Part shown: in pieces, positions 2,919-57,131 of the stretch
How the letters are laid out: every line of letters starts with the position of its first letter
Numbering within the stretch: the first letter of the stretch is position 1
The notes under the pieces: generated by a model
What the model was told of the DNA's origin: nothing
Databases searched by the model: none
Seen by the model: the letters and a program-made list of their open reading frames with translations, nothing else
NCBI GenBank assembly: GCA_964016885.1
Contig: OZ024745.1
Span: 101,246,001 to 101,310,000, forward strand
DNA: 64,000 nt
Direction of reading: 5' to 3'
Source: Eledone cirrhosa
Lineage: Eukaryota
Translations under genes and position numbers: made by a program

Positions 2919-3876
2919 ATACTTTGGGAGGGTCATGTTGCCAATAAGAAACATACGCAGCACCAGTAGCTTTCACTTCAATTTATTATAATAAATTTAT
3001 AAATTTCCTGTAGGTTTGTTGGTTCCACAACCAGATGATTGTTTATATATTGTCAAAGTTCGTTCGTCACACATTCTGTGAGGGAGGTCTTGGGGGGGGG
3101 GGGGGGGGGTATATGTTGCTAATGGGTGTTTTTGTGGAGGTGTCTGGTCTTTCTGCTATCTTGATGTTGAGTTTGTGTTTATCTGGGGCCCTTCTGGGTT
3201 TGTGGGCTGGTTCACCTCTGGGGGTTGTGTCAATGAGCATTGCACTCTGGTGTCTATTGCTGTCGTTTCTCATCACCCGTACCAGATTCGCAATCAGTGT
3301 GTTGATTTTGGTGTGGTCCGAGGCGGCTGGGTTTCGGTGGATCAGATATTTGGAAGTCGTGGGTTTGGCATAATGGGAATGAAGGATTTGTTTTTTTTGT
3401 TAAATCACAGAGGCAGTGAACATAAATGAGCTCCAACCAAAATTGAGTGGAAGGCGTGGGTGGAGCAGCAACGTCGCAGCTTGCGGTTGAGGACAGGATG
3501 AAAACACACACGCACATAGAACAAACAACCAACCAGTAACATAAGCACACAACACACACACAAAAACAAGATGGCGTAGGACAGAACAAAGGAGAAGCAC
3601 AAAAACAAAGAAAAGAATCCCCAGTCACTGAAGAGGTCACAGAATGTGTGACGAAAGAACTTTGACAATATATAAACAATCATCTGGTTGTGGAACCAAC
3701 CAACCAACCGGAAATTTATAAATTCCTAAATTTATAAATTTATTATAATAAATTGAAGTGAAAGCATCTGGTGCGTGTGTTTCTTATTGGCAACATGACT
3801 CTCCCAAAGTATAACAATATCGGTTTCAACACCCGTTTTCAGATAAAGAATCTTGCTAAACAAATTCAGAAACGAA

Positions 3877-5182: not shown

Positions 5183-5190
5183 CAAATAAC

Positions 5191-5244
<54 letters not shown>

Positions 5245-5250
<6 letters not shown>

Positions 5251-5765
5251 CGTAAAATAAGAAAATTATAAAATTAACTTACTTACTAAAATATCACTTC
5301 CAACTAATTAGTTTCTGGAATGGAATAAATATATTTTCCGAAGAAGATACGGAAAAGCATTCCGTCGTCAGGGAGGTCTATTCTCATCTAAGTATCCAGG
5401 CAAAGCGTGGACACTGGAAACTTATTAAAAAATAATTCACTGGATAGGAAATAGCAAAGCGTGGACTGAATTCCTAGCCATTGAGAAAATCACTGCCTCT
5501 GCGTCGGTGGCAAATTCAAAAATAATCAATCACGTGACATCGAGGTCAATCAGTGGAAAGTGGTTTGCTAATAAGACAGCGGCCTGCTACCATAGCAGCA
5601 GTCATGGCCAATATTGCTCGACAAATAATTTGGAGATAATTATAAAGAATTAATATCTAGTAACATATATATATACATACAGATGCATATCAATGCTACC
5701 AAATATATAGGTTTTGTCTTAGTAACTTTGTGGTTCAATGCATAGGGTTGCAGAACAATAATATG

Positions 5766-5770
<5 letters not shown>
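5245..5770 (-). mobile_element. Non-coding HHR-bearing element (~520-nt monomer), circularly permuted relative of 56602-57075
   Basis: Homologous blocks occur in permuted order. Flanked by (TA)n on both sides. No ORF. Confidence 0.75.
5297..5376 (-). ncRNA. Type I hammerhead ribozyme with branched stem II
   Basis: Minus: CCTCC-CTGACGA-CGGAATG...CATTCCA-GAAA-CTAATTAG-TT-GGAAG. Covaries with 56794-56875. Confidence 0.75.
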
Positions 5771-5800
<30 letters not shown>

Positions 5801-7046: not shown

Positions 7047-8435
7047 ACATATCCAATTCGACATCAATAATTACTACTCCTCCATCATTTTACCACTTCT
7101 CCTTAGAGCTATCAATTTCGCTAAAACACTCACAGTGGTTAAGGATTTCGAAGTTGATGTCATCCTCAATGCCCGTAAGTCGGTGATTAATTTCGACGAC
7201 TCTATTTGGATTAAAAAACCTATCGTACCCCATTCGACGGGAGTATGGGCGCCAGCGATTCTGCGGAGGTTACTGATCTTATCGGCCTTTTCTTTCTTTT
7301 CTCTATCAAGGAAGAATTCCCCAATGTGGGCGGTGGTTTGTACCGTGATGATGGTCTTTTGTCCATGACAAAGTGCGGCCCACGTGCTTGCGACAGGTTC
7401 AGAAAAGAACTCACAGCCTTCTTTAAAGTCTTCAACCTCTCCATACAGGTTGATGCCAACCTCTCGGTCGTTAATTACCTCGACGTTACTCACAATTTGT
7501 CGAATGGCTTGCACTACCCGTATAGAAAGCCGAATGATACGCTTAATTACATAAGTAAGCATTCTAACCATCCTGTCAGCATAACCAAGAACCTGGTAAG
7601 AAACGTTTCTTTGAGGCTTTCCCGTCTATCTACTAACGAGAATATTTTCAACGACCATTCCACATATTACAATGAAGCTCTTGCTTGGAGTGAATTTGTC
7701 GATAAGGTATCATATACAGAGTACGAGAATAGACCTATGAAAAATAGATCCCGACGCATTATATGGTATAACCCACCATATAATATGGATGTGGCCACAC
7801 CATTAGCGATGATCTTTCTCTCCCTTGTTATGAAGCATTTTCTCCCTACACATAAACATAGTCACATTTTTAATAGAAATACTATTAAAATTTCTTACTC
7901 TACGACTCCTAACCTTGCACATAACATCACAGCTTCAAATTTAGCTAAACTACCTAGCCGTAGGAACACGTGCAACCCTGTAGTTAGTACTAACTGTAAT
8001 TGTAAGAATTGGGTTGACTGCTCCCTATCCGGGAAATGCCTCTCTAGTAACATTGTCTACAAATGTAAGGTTGAAATACCCACGTCCCGTAGGACCTACA
8101 TAGGGTTAACCGCCAATAGATTCAAGCAGCGTCTTTACATGCATACCCATTCTTTTCGTAACCCTTCAAGAAGGAATATGACGTCACTTTCAGCTTATAT
8201 CTGGAGTCTACAAGACAACCACACCCAATATAAGTTACACTGGGAGATCCTAGCTAGGGCTAGATCGTATAACGCAAATAAAAGACCATGTGACCTCTGT
8301 GCCGCTGGAGCCCTGGAAATACTCTACGCCAAAGACCACATCTTAAACAAAAAATCTGAGGCAATTACGGCTTGTAAACATAAATTGCACAAAACATTCC
8401 TGTATTACATCCCCACATTATACCCTAACGGATAG
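7047..8435 (+). pseudogene. Naiad-clade Penelope-like retroelement ORF (5'-truncated, one frameshift): RT + Zn linker + GIY-YIG
   Basis: [12 protein letters not shown] (RT motif A), GLYRDDGL, YRKPN..SNHP thumb, WYNPPY, CNCKNWVDCSLSGKC, IVYKC...TYIGLT...FKQRLYMH, CDLC. Confidence 0.92.
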
Positions 8436-14304: not shown

Positions 14305-14856
14305 TGGCTGCCAACTCGTTTTCGAGTACGGCCACTACTTTATATCCATGTAGGAGAACCCCTACCGATGCGCTGAATGAGTGTGACTTTTTAGTCCAAC
14401 CAGCGACTTGAAAACTCTGGTACAAACACTATACTTGTGACAATTATTGACACATAGTGCTGGGCCCATGGTACCATGTGACGACAAGTGCAGAGAGATC
14501 TCCAGATATAAAGCAATGCCTGTGCCGTGAAGCTTTTATAGTGAGCAAAAGCACTGCACAAAGCCAGTCCCATTCTCTTCACCAAGATGATATTTACCAA
14601 AAAGAAGAACAAGTTAACATCATTGGATACCATCAGGGTTGCAGGTGTTATATCAGAGTTTTCGTTCTCCTAGAATTCTGCCTTGACAAAGGCTAAGGAG
14701 TCATCTCTCCCGGTGATTTAGGATGGCCATTGACTCTTAAAAGCTCCTTTGCGCTTTGACAGGTTTTGGTTTTAGTCCTGCAGGATGTCCAAAGTCACCC
14801 TCCTCACCAAGAAACCTTGGTGGGGTTGCCAGTTTAGTCGCCAACGACCCGACCAT
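14300..14856 (-). mobile_element. Possible 5' UTR segment of an RTE-like LINE or related SINE
   Basis: Minus strand has TTAGCCTTTGTCAAGGCAGAATTCTAGGAGAACGAAAACTCTG, resembling RTE/SINE-associated motifs, plus several GC hairpins. No coding homology recognised. Confidence 0.3.
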
Positions 14857-14946
14857 GTATATATATACACACACAAACACACACACACGCGCACGCACGC
14901 GCACACACACACACACGCACGCACACGCACGCACACACACACACAC

Positions 14947-15003
<57 letters not shown>

Positions 15004-15004
15004 A

Positions 15005-16128
15005 ATACACTCAATTTAAACTCTGGTTTGATTAAACCGTTTCATAAATTGAATGAAAATCTCAAATACGTAAATGTTGGGTCTAACCACCCCATCTCTA
15101 TAATTAAATCTATCCCTAAAAATATTTCCCTTAGAATCTCGGGTCTATCTTCTAACATACAAGTATTTAAGGAACACGCCGAGTACTACGATAACGCCCT
15201 TAGTGAAGCAGGCTACCTCAACAAAATAGAGTACATAGATGGGAACAATCAAAACACCCAAAATAAATCCCACATAGGTAGATATAATAACACAACACCA
15301 AACCACACTTACTACCATAGTATGCACACCAGTAAACCAACAAACAAAACTAATAGAAAGCGATGCAAAGAGTACTTATGGTATAACCCCGAATACAATA
15401 GTTCCATTAGTACAAATTTACCAGTACTCTTCTTTAAAATAATTAAAAGACATTTTCCTACATCACACAAATACCACAAAATCCTAAACCCTACCACTAT
15501 AAGACTGTCATACTCTACAGCGTTAAACCTTGAACAACACATAAAAAAGATCAATACTAGAAGGTTAAACGAAAACACTAAAAACTTAAGTACAAAGAAC
15601 ACAAAAAAAACAGTAGACAATACACTACAGAACATAAATAAACCACACCTAAGTTCGTCCGCAATACTACTCCAGAGAAAACCCAACGTACACAACTGTA
15701 ACTGCACCTATCCTGACAACTGCCCCCTCGGCAATAACTGCCTGGAAAAAAATATTATTTATAAGTGTACCGTTAAATCCGGAGGCAACGAGTGGTATTA
15801 CGTGGGATCAACGGCAACATCGTTTAAATCTCGATTGTATAGGCATTCTTACTCAATAAAACACCAGAGCCAAAGAAATGTAACAACTTTAGCAGAAAAA
15901 GCTTGGACGCTCAGGGATAGCGATCAAAAGTTTACCCTAAAATGGGAGAAATTAGCTAAAACCCAAAGCTTTTCCAGGAGCCAAAATTTCTGCAAATTGT
16001 GTAATCTTGAGATTTATTACATAATCACACACAAGAAGAAACTGCTGAATAACAGAATTGAACGAACATTATTCTGCCGTCACAGAACTAAAACCCTTTT
16101 TTCCCACTACAAGCCGAATATTACATAA
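15005..16128 (+). CDS. Naiad PLE ORF, 5'-truncated but uninterrupted (RT thumb, Zn linker, GIY-YIG)
   Basis: KPFHKLNENLKYVNVGSNHP, WYNPEY, CNCTYPDNCPLGNNCL, IIYKC...YYVGST...FKSRLYRH, FCKLC. The N-terminus of the ORF call is microsatellite read-through. Confidence 0.9.
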
Positions 16129-17167: not shown

Positions 17168-17967
17168 ATTCCTTTCAACTAAACTGTATCCATTCAAATC
17201 TTTCTATATATAAATATATATATATATATATATTATATCTATTTTGGGAAACATATAAAGTAGGCTTTCAGCGCAGTATATGACAGAAACGTAAATACAC
17301 TCTGTGAAGTTTAATTACTGAACTAAAAATATAAAATATAGATTAAATATAAAAAATTTTTTTAAATTAAATTTGATCATTGGCACTGAATTCCATCTTA
17401 GAAATTTATACTGAATCGACACCTTATTCATTGTCATGTTCCATTCACATAAATCATACTTAGACATGTATCAGATTCTATTGCATCTAATGTTCTGTAA
17501 TATTATGATGGTAATTTGGAAAGATTAAAACAAAATTTTTAAAAGATAAGAGCAAACACAAACGCCATGTACATTTTATTATAAATAATTTTAGCTGAGA
17601 TTGCTTATGTTGTAAAGCAATTAATGGTTTAATATGTTCAATCATTAGAAGAAAAAGCATTTTATTACATGCGTTACATACACATTATTTCCTTGGTTTC
17701 AAATTAGGAACATTGGAAGCAATAAAATCTGATACAGCTTAGTATGATTTATGTGAATGTAACATTGGAATGAATACAGTTGAATTTAAGTCGATTTTAT
17801 CGAACCCCAGCACTTATCACCCTATTTCTGTCAAACCACTAACCTATGGGACATAAACGAACATGTTTGTGTGTGTGTATGTCCATGTCTGTACTTACGT
17901 AAATGTTTGTTTACGTCCAGTTATATATATATATATATTGTTTACGTCCAGTTATATATATATATAT

Positions 17968-18708
<741 letters not shown>

Positions 18709-22339: not shown

Positions 22340-23610
22340 TAAGGCCCATGGCCAAACTATATCTTACAACCCGAGGCGCCATGATAGAGATAGACCATCG
22401 GACCCCCCGACCCACGGTATCCGGGAGGGGGGAACCCTAACAGTGCAGGTAGAGTGGAAGCCACTAAACCCCATGAACCCGGCACCACCACATTAGAGAA
22501 AAGGACGCGTACGCCTAGTCATGGGAGGAAATCCAGTACGCGAGGTGGTCTCAGGAGTGATAATAACCACCCCGGGCCCGACGCCCCCAACCGCAAGACA
22601 CGAAGCGGGACTGACGGAGGATCATCCAATTGTAGAACTCTCATCATGGGCACACACACCACCCAACAGGTACGGGCCGAGAAGCTAGCAAAACACATAG
22701 CGCTCAAAGGGGAAACAACAATACGGGAACTAGTAGCAACCCAACAACTCCCCAACAGCCTACAGCACGCTCAACCCATCCACATAGGAATAGACTAAGA
22801 AAAATTACGTGGTGCAACCCACCCTACTAAGGAACCTAAAGACCAGCATGGCCCGGTCATTCTTTAGAGCACTAGATAAATGCTTCCCGGGGGACCACAG
22901 ATTCCACAAGATCTTCAACAGACACACTGTGAAGCTCTCGTATTCTACCACGCGCAACGTAGCCCAGCACATAGCTAGCAATAGGGGTAGACTTAAAAAC
23001 TACACACAACCAGCAGCTGGCAATATAAGCACCCAGCAGAGCCATGTAGGGGGAAGGAATGGTGGACCCGGTACCCACCCTGGGAACCCAAACAGACCCA
23101 GGGACCCCCCACCGGGCCCAGGGGCAGACCCCCCTATACTACGCAAAGGGAACCCCACAATAGGCACTCAGGGGTCGACCACCTCCTGCAACTGCAGAAC
23201 CCTTACATTATGTCCCCTTAGTAATGAATGCCTCATGAAGAACCTAGTATACGGATGTAGAGTAAAAAACCCCAACTCTGAGCACATTTACATAGGAGCC
23301 ACATCAACGAGCTTCAAAGACAGATGGTATAACCATCGCCATTCCTTTAATAGGGAGGGCAAAAGGAAAAGTACGGCTCTCCGAACTGATCTGGAAGCTC
23401 AAGCTGGACAGGACCCCGTACTCTCTGGCCTGGTCCCAAATCAGGAAAGTGCCACCTGATAGAGGGGGATCTGGATCTGCAACCTATGTCTCAGTGAGAC
23501 CCTCGAGATACTCAATGGTGGGAGCAGCCTAATCAAACTTAGGACCGACTTCTTTGGTACATGTAGTCACCTCAGGGCCGGAACCTTCCTCAAACTATAT
23601 GGATAACAAC
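22340..23610 (+). pseudogene. GC-rich Naiad PLE 3' ORF fragment with expanded linker, frameshifted
   Basis: FFRALDKCFPGDHRFHKIFNRHTVKLSYSTT, CNCRTLTLCPLSNECL, LVYGC...IYIGAT...FKDRWYNH, ICNLCLSE. Confidence 0.88.
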
Positions 23611-38820: not shown

Positions 38821-40876
38821 GAAAAAGTTGTTAAAAGAATGAGATGGAAAGCTTTGATTTTCGATGGGCACTTTATCACGGACTCTACAGAATACTTTGA
38901 TATCAAGTCTCATAAATACCCATAAAGAGTAAAAGATATGACCGCTTTTGAACTAGACTTAGTTAATTTAATCAACCAAATCAAATTCCGTAAGTACTCT
39001 AACTCTTTTTAATCTAAACTCTCTAACGATATTTCAAAATTCAAATCCTCTAAAAACATGTTCATTTTCTCTGATAAAACTAAAAACTTATACGAAGTTA
39101 ATAATGACTTACATAACCAACTCTTAACAGATAGTATCACCTCCAAATACCAAATAGCTAATATAAACACCTAAGGAAGCCAAAGAATTAGCTAGTTTTT
39201 TTTTAATAGACAATAGAACAGAAAAATTGCTAAACGTAATGCCTATATCACCCTCAAAGATCACAAATCTGATTTTAATAATCGTCCCAGTTGTAGATTA
39301 ATCAACCCTGCTAAGACTGAAATCGGCCTTGCTAGCAAAAAAATATTAAATAATATAAACAAACATATTAGAAGTAAGTCTGAATTACTCCAATGGATAA
39401 ATAGCTCTTCTGTAGTACATTGGTTTAAAAATATTAAAGATAAAAATAGTTCTAGATTCACCCAATTTGACATTGTAGACTTCTACCCGTCTATTACTCA
39501 CCCTCTTTTAAGGAAAGCATTAAATTTCGCTAAAAAGTTTATCAATATTTCTGATATTGAAGAGAATGTCATTTTGCATGCTAGAACCACTTTACTGTTT
39601 ACTAATAATGACACTTGGGTAAAAAAATCTAACCCAGAGAACCTATTCGATGTCTCAATGGGTTCTTTTGACAGTGCTGACGTGTGTGATTTAGTCGGCC
39701 TATTCCTCCTACACACACTTAAAGAGAAATTCTCTAACCATTCCTTTGGGCTTTATCGTGACGATGGTCTAATACTTTCCCATACCACTATAGGCCATAA
39801 CTTAGACAGATTCAGGAAAGACTTAATAAAATCCTTCGCTAGTTTTAATCTTAAAATTACCATTGACACTAACCTTTCTAATGTTAATTTTCTAGATATA
39901 AACCTAGATCTGCCTACTGCTTCTTATAAACCGTACCATAAACCAAATGAAAATTTAAAATATATAAATAAAGGCTCTTGCCATCCTCCTATAGTTTAAA
40001 AAAATCTTATCCCTAATATTAGCCGTAGGATCTCCACCCTCTCTTCCTCAGAAGCTATTTTCAATAAGGCATCCCCTACTATAATAAAGCCCTTCAAAAT
40101 AGCGTATTTAGTGAACCGATTAACTACATACCCAACAATACTAACTCCTTTAAACATAATAATAGGAAAAGAAAAATAATCTGGTTCACCCCACCCCTAC
40201 TCTTTAGCAGTTAAAACTAATGTAGGCAAAAAACTCCTAGAGCTCTTGGATAAACATTTCCCTAGAACACATAGATACTATAATATCTTCAATAGAAACT
40301 ATGTCAAAATCAGCTACTGCTGCGGTCCTTCTATTAAATCTTATATCCTCAATAAGAAAATACCCAGAGAACATCAAAATTGCTCCTGTAGAGTCAAAAG
40401 CGAATGCCCATTACAAGGTGAATGGCCATTACAAAAGTGAATGCCCATTACACCAAAGCCATTGTATATGAGGCTAAAGTGACAACCACCAGCAACAACC
40501 TACCAGCCACCAGCGAACGATATGTGGGTATGACACAAGACAAATTCAAAACGCGTTATTACTCACATGTCGCATCTTTCCGATATTCTGAAAAAAGATT
40601 TACAACAGCTCTGGTTAGCAGAATATGGGATTTGAAAACCAAGGTATCCAATATAAATTAGATTGGTCAATTTTGAACAAATCTAAAGAATATGCAAGCG
40701 GAACAAGATGCGCACTCTGCATAAGTGAAAAATATTGGATTTTACAGAACCTTAAATCACCAAAAACCTGCCTAAATGCAAAAACAGAAATTTTCACCAG
40801 TTGCCTACACATGAAATCACACTTGCTTTCCAGCTCATATAAACTTAACTCACTTTCAGACATGTATCCTCCATAA
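38821..40876 (+). pseudogene. Naiad ORF (RT + GIY-YIG) with several stops and frameshifts
   Basis: KRMRWKA N-terminal motif, SDKTKNLY, YITLKDHK...CRLINP, FTQFDIVDFYPSI, MGSFDSADVCDLVG, GLYRDDGL, CSCRVKSECPLQGE, IVYEA...YVGMT...FKTRYYSH, CALC. Confidence 0.93.
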
Positions 40877-50983: not shown

Positions 50984-51048
50984 ATTTTATTATACATATT
51001 TCAGAGGTACTGAGCTATCTTCAACAGTACGTCCTCATCAGATAAAAT
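50984..51048 (-). ncRNA. Type I hammerhead ribozyme
   Basis: Minus: ATTTTAT-CTGATGA-GGACGTACTG...CAGTACCTCT-GAAA-TATGTA-TA-ATAAAAT. Confidence 0.72.
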
Positions 51049-56159: not shown

Positions 56160-56520
56160 TACAAACGAAAGACACAGAACTCCAGGGTCACCGGCCGTTG
56201 AAGTGGACTTTGGCAGTTTCGACCTTTCACCGTATTTTTGACTAAAGGAATTTTAGCCTGATAATGGGGTTTAGAACCCTCAGATAAATGGAAAAAGATG
56301 GGTATTGACGTACATGGGAGTCGAACCCACATCTTTGGTTATCGCGACCATTACACCAACACCACATGATGTGTTGGTGTAATGGTAGCACAGTGGTCGC
56401 GATAACCAAAGATGTGGGTTAGGCTCCCATGTACGTCAATACTCATCTTTTTCCATTTATCTGAGGGTTCTAAACCCCATTATCAGGCTAAAATTCCTTT
56501 AGTCAAAAATACGGTGAAAG
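56160..56520. mobile_element. tRNA-headed element as a fold-back (arms 56224-56361 and 56372-56520)
   Basis: 56368-56438 folds as a cloverleaf: acceptor GATGTGT/GTACGTC, A box TGGTGTAATGG, T arm GTGGG-TTCGACT-CCCAT (intact in the left arm). Not a canonical tRNA gene. Confidence 0.75.
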
Positions 56521-56524
56521 CTAT

Positions 56525-56601
<77 letters not shown>

Positions 56602-56605
<4 letters not shown>

Positions 56606-57072
56606 TAATTTAATATATCAACTAACATAGACGCACAGATGTACGTCCATGCCAGCAAATACACAGGTTATGTCATAGTACCTAGGTGGTTCAATGCAGG
56701 AGGGTGCAGAACAATAATATAAAAGACGTAAAATAAGAAAATATTTTTAAAAAAAATGTTTAAAAAATTTTTTACTTACTTACTTAAATTTTCACTCCAA
56801 CTAATTAGTTTCTGCAATGGGATAAAGACAGTTACATAATCCAACTGTCGAGAATTCATTGCGTCATCAGGGAGTCTATTCTCAGCTGAGCCTCCAGGCA
56901 ATGCGCGGACACTGGCGGCTCATATAAAAATAATACTTCGGTAGAAAGAACAGCTAGGCGAGGACTGGATTCTATGTACTGAAATTCTCACTGCTTCCAG
57001 TCAAATGACCGATTCTAAAGAATCAATCACGTGACATAGAGGCTAGTTAGAAGGAATGGGATGGTAAGATGA

Positions 57073-57075
<3 letters not shown>
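56602..57075 (-). mobile_element. ~520-nt family HHR element, permuted copy
   Basis: The end block of the 5245 copy (GCAGAACAATAATAT) is joined directly to its start block (AGACGTAAAATAAGAAAAT). Confidence 0.78.
56794..56875 (-). ncRNA. Type I hammerhead with branched stem II
   Basis: Minus: ACTCC-CTGATGA-CGCAATG...GACAGTT/AACTGTC...CATTGCA-GAAA-CTAATTAG-TT-GGAGT. Confidence 0.8.

Positions 57076-57131
<56 letters not shown>

Follow-up and report, generated by a model that had tools for sequence, protein, structure and literature searches.

The window, a stretch of 64,000 nt of contig OZ024745.1 of Eledone cirrhosa, whose 3.0-Gb genome is rich in microsatellites, contains two diverged copies of one repeat family, which we call A and B:

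5190–5244, unstranded: (TA)n target to the left of copy A, read from the window sequence
5245–5766, minus strand: copy A, one complete unit of 522 nt and a one-armed insertion in (TA)n, with the minus strand as RNA sense
56604–57076, minus strand: copy B, about 474 of the 555 nt of a sister-subfamily unit, inserted in (TA)n, starting at S2 (see below) and truncated at its other end

Further (TA)n runs lie at about 5770–5798, 56535–56603 and 57077–57127, and each copy sits between such runs. Adjoining copy B across its (TA)n is an inverted repeat (56224–56520) with 127-nt arms that are 98% complementary, which is probably itself a two-armed insertion.

A preliminary description of this DNA had taken the two copies for circular permutations of each other, and the alignments bear this out. 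The order of the blocks found by blastn is rotated, A 30–301 corresponding to B 170–441 (73% identity, E=3e-34) and A 427–523 to B 26–122 (78%, E=1e-19), and the local alignment score rises from 256 for A against B to 367 for doubled A against B. There is also an exact block (A 4–22 and B 123–141, 19/19). The end blocks of A, which had been described as directly joined in B, are in fact separated there by 3 nt, and the counterpart described at 56602–57075 is a copy that holds only about 0.85 of its unit. The copies are diverged as described: they show 73–78% identity in aligned blocks, are about 71% identical as whole units and belong to different subfamilies, in each of which numerous members match at 97–99% identity. 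They are rotated relative to each other because A began at S1 and B at S2, two fixed starts that are described below. On its own, this permutation is no demonstration of circular RNA, since it follows from S1 and S2 starts on a tandem template as well as on a circular one, just as Penelope elements occur both with a tail and without.

Both copies belong to a large family. Genome searches returned 2,280 candidates with copy A and 819 with copy B, of which 40 and 39, respectively, were scored and showed 95–99% identity. A 16-mer from the hammerhead core, at stem III, has 13,135 exact occurrences, compared with 0 for its control. Complete units, of 521–554 nt, fall into at least eight groups that are 70–90% identical, with more groups at a 95% cut, and tandem arrays reach up to 9 full units. 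Family variants are also present in two contig runs from one sample (type unrecorded). The unit is without coding remnant, the longest stop-free frame in eight doubled units being 86 aa, and the architecture is without LTR structure. Together, the copy searches and the junction counts given below identify a dispersed, multicopy and mobile retrozyme family. It is a real, abundant and recently active retrozyme with a clear Penelope-type two-start footprint; what is new is the family itself, the class of element being already known.

Loci L241–L270 hold deletion variants without the side hairpin, often with stem II kept, which apparently arose by jumps between short internal repeats. L094, L095 and L133 have a common truncation point and flank, and there the insertion was probably copied within a larger duplication.

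The hammerhead ribozyme and the predicted RNA fold

Each window copy carries a hammerhead motif on the minus strand, with the following elements:

5297–5385, minus strand: type I hammerhead of copy A, from sequence motif and covariation
5385–5381 with a run of pyrimidines in the internal loop of stem II, minus strand: candidate pseudoknot of copy A
5371–5365, minus strand: hammerhead core CUGACGA of copy A, from the motif
5364/5316, minus strand: C.A mismatch at the base of stem II of copy A
5363–5358 with 5322–5317, minus strand: stem II of copy A
5315–5312, minus strand: GAAA of copy A
5313–5302, minus strand: palindromic stem III of copy A
between 5302 and 5301, minus strand: predicted cleavage site of copy A, after GUU
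56794–56885, minus strand: hammerhead of copy B, with CUGAUGA at 56870–56864 and predicted cleavage between 56799 and 56798

The predicted GUU cleavage site is closed by stem I, which makes this a type I hammerhead, and stem II comprises 6 bp. The hammerhead covaries on the minus strand across the at least eight subfamilies. Among 49 distinct copies, 96–98% of the cells in the hammerhead pairing are paired, a level that none of 500 shuffles reaches in a control that ignores the relatedness of the copies, while slid partners give 37–52%. The CUGAnGA core is intact in 42 of the 49 distinct rows. The compensatory change in stem II that had been seen between the two window copies (GGAATG/CATTCC versus GCAATG/CATTGC) extends to the entire family: the pair concerned occurs in all four Watson–Crick types and is paired in 49/49 rows, and another stem II pair is U-A in 31 copies and G-C in 17. 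Since one stem II pair displays four pair types, at least three double changes are needed, despite the relatedness-blind control. A helix I column pair (11–94) depends on gap placement and was therefore left out of the strong covariation.

For the side hairpin, the compensation originally proposed (TTTTCCG/CGGAAAA in A versus GACAGTT/AACTGTC in B) is not supported. Among 44 units taken from 27 loci of the A subfamily, TTTTCCG is present in 1, the usual form being TTCTCTG, and it is out of register with the hairpin of B. The hairpin originally drawn for copy A is locally stable (−10.5 kcal/mol versus −3.7 for the core only), yet private to that copy. What stands is that a side hairpin is conserved in homologous register, columns 39–42 pairing with 58–61 in 94% of cases and with both-side changes in all four pairs.

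Farther afield, the five 5' bases of the motif complement a pyrimidine stretch in the loop of stem II and are 98.8% paired, making this a candidate pseudoknot; one of its pairs is compensated (G-C in 41 copies, A-U in 7), and this covariation, read from the alignment, may reflect a single event. Outside the ribozyme, both-side changes occur in 12 of 71 predicted pairs among 26 units, including a long-range helix that encloses S2, the 71-pair structure being derived from the same 26-unit alignment in which the changes were counted. Folding four of the eight representatives as circular monomers gave z between −3.3 and −11.3 (12 shuffles each), with 57–65% of bases paired. Taken by itself, the hammerhead region shows no excess stability over shuffles (z about −0.5), and in copy A the fold of minimum energy differs from the hammerhead. 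With a covarying hammerhead and covariation over the whole unit, the earlier claim of a functional structured RNA is supported. Two features proposed by RNAalifold were dropped, namely the helix 473–479/521–527 and the pairs 76–83/537–543, the latter competing with the core as an artefact of linearising the monomer at the cleavage site.

The core is atypical in three respects: its site is GUU, the stem III of the monomer is weak (−0.5 kcal/mol), and the base of stem II has a C.A, as seen in 106 of 111 distinct copies. GUU sites are cleaved with lower efficiency. No Rfam hammerhead family is among the 150 matches listed, of 153 at E≤1 in the window, those listed being microsatellite-driven and miRNA-like, and at the gathering score Rfam gives 0 matches in six loci. 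In these searches neither copy A nor copy B matches an Rfam family.

The window has further hammerhead-like cores at 3628, 21602, 22131, 24945, 26040, 57739 and 59062 on the plus strand and at 51041 and 10556 on the minus strand. In several of these, stem III is palindromic and rich in TA, and stem II has non-canonical pairs at its base. About ten more hammerhead families (69 distinct motifs) are found in the flanks of the loci. Unrelated tandem hammerheads at L116 (minus strand, 470-nt spacing) and L008 (528-nt spacing) are likely to be more retrozyme families, and L258 carries another hammerhead whose stem III is that of the family described here.

Fixed starts and two-armed insertions

The outer ends of the insertions define two fixed starts, S1 and S2, and the segment between them, which we call the tail:

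5241–5253, plus strand: fixed start S1 of copy A, TA-repeat microhomology with the first unique base at 5245
5645–5766, plus strand: S2-to-S1 segment (tail) of copy A, with S2 at about 5645
56604–56720, plus strand: tail of copy B, with S2 at 56604 and the first unique base of S1 at 56721

In all eight subfamilies, the outer ends are S1 or S2, each following 4 nt of TA microhomology, and the tail measures 115–118 nt. In the RNA, S1 and S2 lie 53–78 and about 170–195 nt, respectively, 3' of the predicted cleavage site. Genome-wide, there are 4,060 exact (TA)n-S1 junctions (control, 0) and 1,950 (TA)n-S2 junctions, the latter counted for the A-like subfamilies alone (control, 3). Outer starts seldom fall at the other TA-rich runs inside the unit. 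At seven S2 junctions (L103, L120, L121, L124, L135, L183 and L199), a (GA)n run of variable length stands between (TA)n and the element; such runs occur in subfamilies with GAGA at S2 and suggest slippage at priming.

Many of the insertions have two arms in inverted orientation. We sampled the first ~110 Mb of one contig, in which one locus scored as one-armed could not be judged. From the first 100 S1 places on the list, the S1-anchored sample takes 92, or 91 after removal of one mirror duplicate, and 59 of these 91 are two-armed, with the partner arm starting at S2 in 56, at S1 in none and elsewhere in 3. When anchored on S2, 46 of 69 are two-armed (partner S1 in 41, S2 in 3, other in 2). 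Restricting this to the S2 places outside the S1 sample leaves 25 two-armed loci of 40 (S1 in 21, S2 in 3, other in 1), so that S1 is paired with S2 in 77 of the 84 non-overlapping two-armed loci. This pairing is not absolute, as three loci were classed as S2 with S2, one of them clearly so. At L202, L222 and L284/L285, pairs of starts face outward within a few hundred bases, and these are nested or mirrored insertions.

Comparing the two arms shows how they were made. For 23 of 56 loci, neither of the arms is contained in its partner; the two were therefore primed separately, and fold-back copying is excluded. Moreover, in 24 of 33 testable loci, the best match of an arm is its own partner (1.5 expected), which indicates that both arms derive from one template or source locus. 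The family combines traits of the Penelope type: two fixed starts that bound a tail at one end, an inverted truncated copy and (TA)n targets.

No autonomous partner emerged from the searches for a Penelope-like element (PLE). An ORF combining RT and GIY-YIG was not found within the element in the loci examined, and DNA homology to any PLE terminus was absent at E≤1 in the window and in loci L001–L270 (profile against masked loci). A pattern search for a partner with a short stem II gave 44 matches, 43 of which look like deletion variants of the retrozyme family itself, and tblastn of five PLE fragments of the window against the loci found no autonomous partner. These five Penelope-like ORF fragments lie at 7215–8435, 14776–16128, 22794–23459 and 39217–39999 on the plus strand and at 17942–18547 on the minus strand. 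Pfam gives weak GIY-YIG and RVT_1 matches for two of the five, and the first three have a CxCx5C linker before GIY-YIG, which is of Hydra type according to PMC8557442. At L240 (1300–3600), there is an ORF-bearing PLE of Hydra type with two inverted arms in (TA)n and an extension of roughly 75 nt on one arm, an architecture like that of the retrozyme insertions.

The RNA template and a proposed mechanism

Arms of S1 insertions often run far along the template: 76 of 91 extend past the first predicted cleavage site, and 28 of 91 are longer than one unit. Since arms pass this site and run for several laps, the template cannot have been a cleaved linear monomer; it was either circular or uncut. 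Long arrays cannot be taken as proof of a rolling circle, an argument that we rejected because some were reshaped later. In L063 and L064, for example, variants with period 2 and period 4 and variants specific to one arm point to duplication or conversion after insertion, so not all long arrays represent laps.

Sequence variants within arms bear on the nature of the template. Locus-private substitutions common to both arms occur in 3 of 28 B loci (L067, L071 and L078), while for unit-specific variants compared in register between arms, leaving out the A/T-rich zone and 14 variants adjacent to homopolymers or junctions, we counted 1 shared versus 35 unshared. Together, these argue for a uniform template. 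Arms end within the 15 nt before the predicted cleavage site in 20 of 167 cases, compared with a background of 3.7% (p=5e-6, with windows chosen after looking), and in 5 of 69 in a replicate (p=0.08); in L331, both arms end at positions −1 and 0 of this site. We counted this enrichment in favour of some templates having been cleaved, although stalling of the RT at stem I or palindromic microhomology could mimic it.

On balance, we lean towards a circular rather than an uncut linear template. The strongest competitor, to which we assign a substantial but minor share of probability, keeps the same element and the same twin priming by a PLE, and posits as template an uncut linear multimer from a tandem locus, the hammerhead being slow, protein-assisted or active later. 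Such a template would suit the atypical hammerhead core and the many multi-unit source loci, and it matches the anole PLE, which can do without its hammerhead and in vitro works mainly on uncut RNA (PMC11167929). Near-identical units are likewise expected if source arrays are young and homogeneous. However, an aged linear array should hand its differences to both arms, and only 1 of the 36 unit-specific variants is shared in register; besides, hammerhead covariation is retained in all subfamilies, and related retrozymes of mussel, coral and axolotl accumulate as circles (PMC7229834).

The remaining alternatives dispense with the retrozyme or with the fixed starts. It is improbable that the copies are nothing more than the terminal repeats (pLTRs), truncated 5', of a PLE that is autonomous and has its ORF out of reach. 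While PLEs are characterised by a tail, by inverted arms and by insertion at TA (PMC8557442), and PLE fragments are plentiful nearby, the arms circle the unit for up to 9 full units without ever entering an ORF, the unit bears no trace of coding sequence, and where PLE protein matches occur in the examined loci, they are external to the element, with no constant distance or orientation. We consider it very improbable that circular RNA or DNA was opened at random positions and then inserted. This would yield arbitrary permutations, in keeping with the different beginnings of window copies A and B, but is contradicted by the start census, in which two fixed starts recur in all eight subfamilies and other TA-rich runs are seldom used. 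Equally hard to credit is a repeat propagated at the DNA level (a MITE or satellite), with inverted arms made by fold-back or recombination after insertion: the later reshaping of some arrays would fit, but terminal inverted repeats are absent, neither arm contains the other in the 23 loci mentioned above, and a single-strand structure is conserved on one strand.

Taken as a whole, it is probable that this protein-free, multicopy tandem repeat is a non-LTR retrozyme copied into (TA)n by the protein of a PLE, and we are slightly more confident that it is a PLE-mobilised retrozyme with two fixed starts. In the mechanism that we propose, minus-strand transcripts would be made from tandem loci. 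The hammerhead, which may act as a dimer via its palindromic stem III, would release monomers from them, to be circularised by a host ligase. One such RNA would then be held by a PLE protein, which may be dimeric and would nick both strands of a (TA)n target. Priming would take place from one DNA end at S1 and from its counterpart at S2, in each case by 4 nt of AU microhomology, and both cDNAs would travel in the same direction round the template, halt at variable points and be joined, generating the inverted structure. Where one arm fails, the outcome would be a one-armed copy such as A or B.

More tentatively, and with somewhat less than even confidence, we suggest that each insertion may be a snapshot of a PLE dimer copying one circular ribozyme RNA in laps, simultaneously from two sites that are fixed and structure-defined, with one active site per nicked strand, the RNA carrying a hammerhead variant that Rfam misses (C.A at the base of stem II, a long stem II and a pseudoknot from its loop to the 5' strand). 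If this is true, the Penelope tail, the inverted arm and the tandem arrays of retrozymes would be the work of one reaction. Rolling-circle reverse transcription by PLEs has been proposed as the way in which animal retrozymes are copied. For this proposal, and for the origin of PLE tails and inverted arms, the family offers thousands of young insertions, an unusually long tail and near-obligate S1–S2 pairing. Its subfamilies, at least eight in number, provide template barcodes that make a model with one RNA and two primers testable, and it adds a hammerhead variant that covaries well and escapes the Rfam models.

Comparison with known systems

Animal non-LTR retrozymes were defined by Cervera and de la Pena (2020, PMC7229834), who described circles in coral, mussel and axolotl and proposed mobilisation by PLEs, and retrozymes have since been linked to the pLTRs of PLEs, cleavage being observed for 1 of 9 dimers from frogs (Li, Clavereau and Pollet 2026, 10.64898/2026.07.22.740005). 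The family in Eledone resembles metazoan non-LTR retrozymes in several ways: it consists of tandem repeats that encode no protein, are low in GC and hold a single type I hammerhead in each unit, its circle is predicted to be self-paired, and PLEs coexist with it. Its unit length falls inside the 51–972 bp range of Li et al., while exceeding the 170–400 nt of the circles in PMC7229834. The mismatch at the base of stem II, which is C.A here, is U.U in the axolotl HHR_Amex2. A pLTR homologue was not found for the Eledone family in the window and loci L001–L270, in contrast to the PLE matches of 21 of 57 frog families (10.64898/2026.07.22.740005). Fixed dual starts, tails and inverted two-armed insertions, all present here, are described in neither retrozyme paper (PMC7229834; 10.64898/2026.07.22.740005) in their accessible parts, and the passages of PMC13282606 at hand do not mention ribozymes. 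Nor did we find any description of dual-start, two-armed retrozyme insertions in the literature searched, subscription journals and supplements lying outside its scope. The long stem II with its internal loop, the side hairpin and the candidate pseudoknot also distinguish this family from metazoan retrozymes.

The likeness to PLEs is equally close. PLEs have two RT start sites that bound the tail, with both DNA strands extended and a dimer predicted (Frangieh et al. 2024, PMC11167929), and they form tandem and inverted insertions with a tail of 30–40 bp at one end, Hydra PLEs targeting (TA)n (Craig et al. 2021, PMC8557442). Like endonuclease-bearing PLEs in these sources, the Eledone family shows two RT starts bounding a tail at one end, a truncated copy lying alongside in inverted orientation, insertion into AT or (TA)n and a hammerhead slightly 5' of the starts. 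In contrast to PLEs, it is devoid of an ORF and has a tail of 115–118 nt rather than 30–40 (PMC8557442), and its priming sites carry 4 nt of TA microhomology, whereas the anole PLE in vitro uses non-homologous sites (PMC11167929). Its arms, unlike those of PLEs, loop through several units.

A further parallel is the twin priming of L1, in which an inverted 5' part results from priming by both target strands on one RNA, the first primer sitting at the poly(A) and the second at variable internal sites. The inverted part is alike in the Eledone family, but here both priming sites are fixed, internal and close together.
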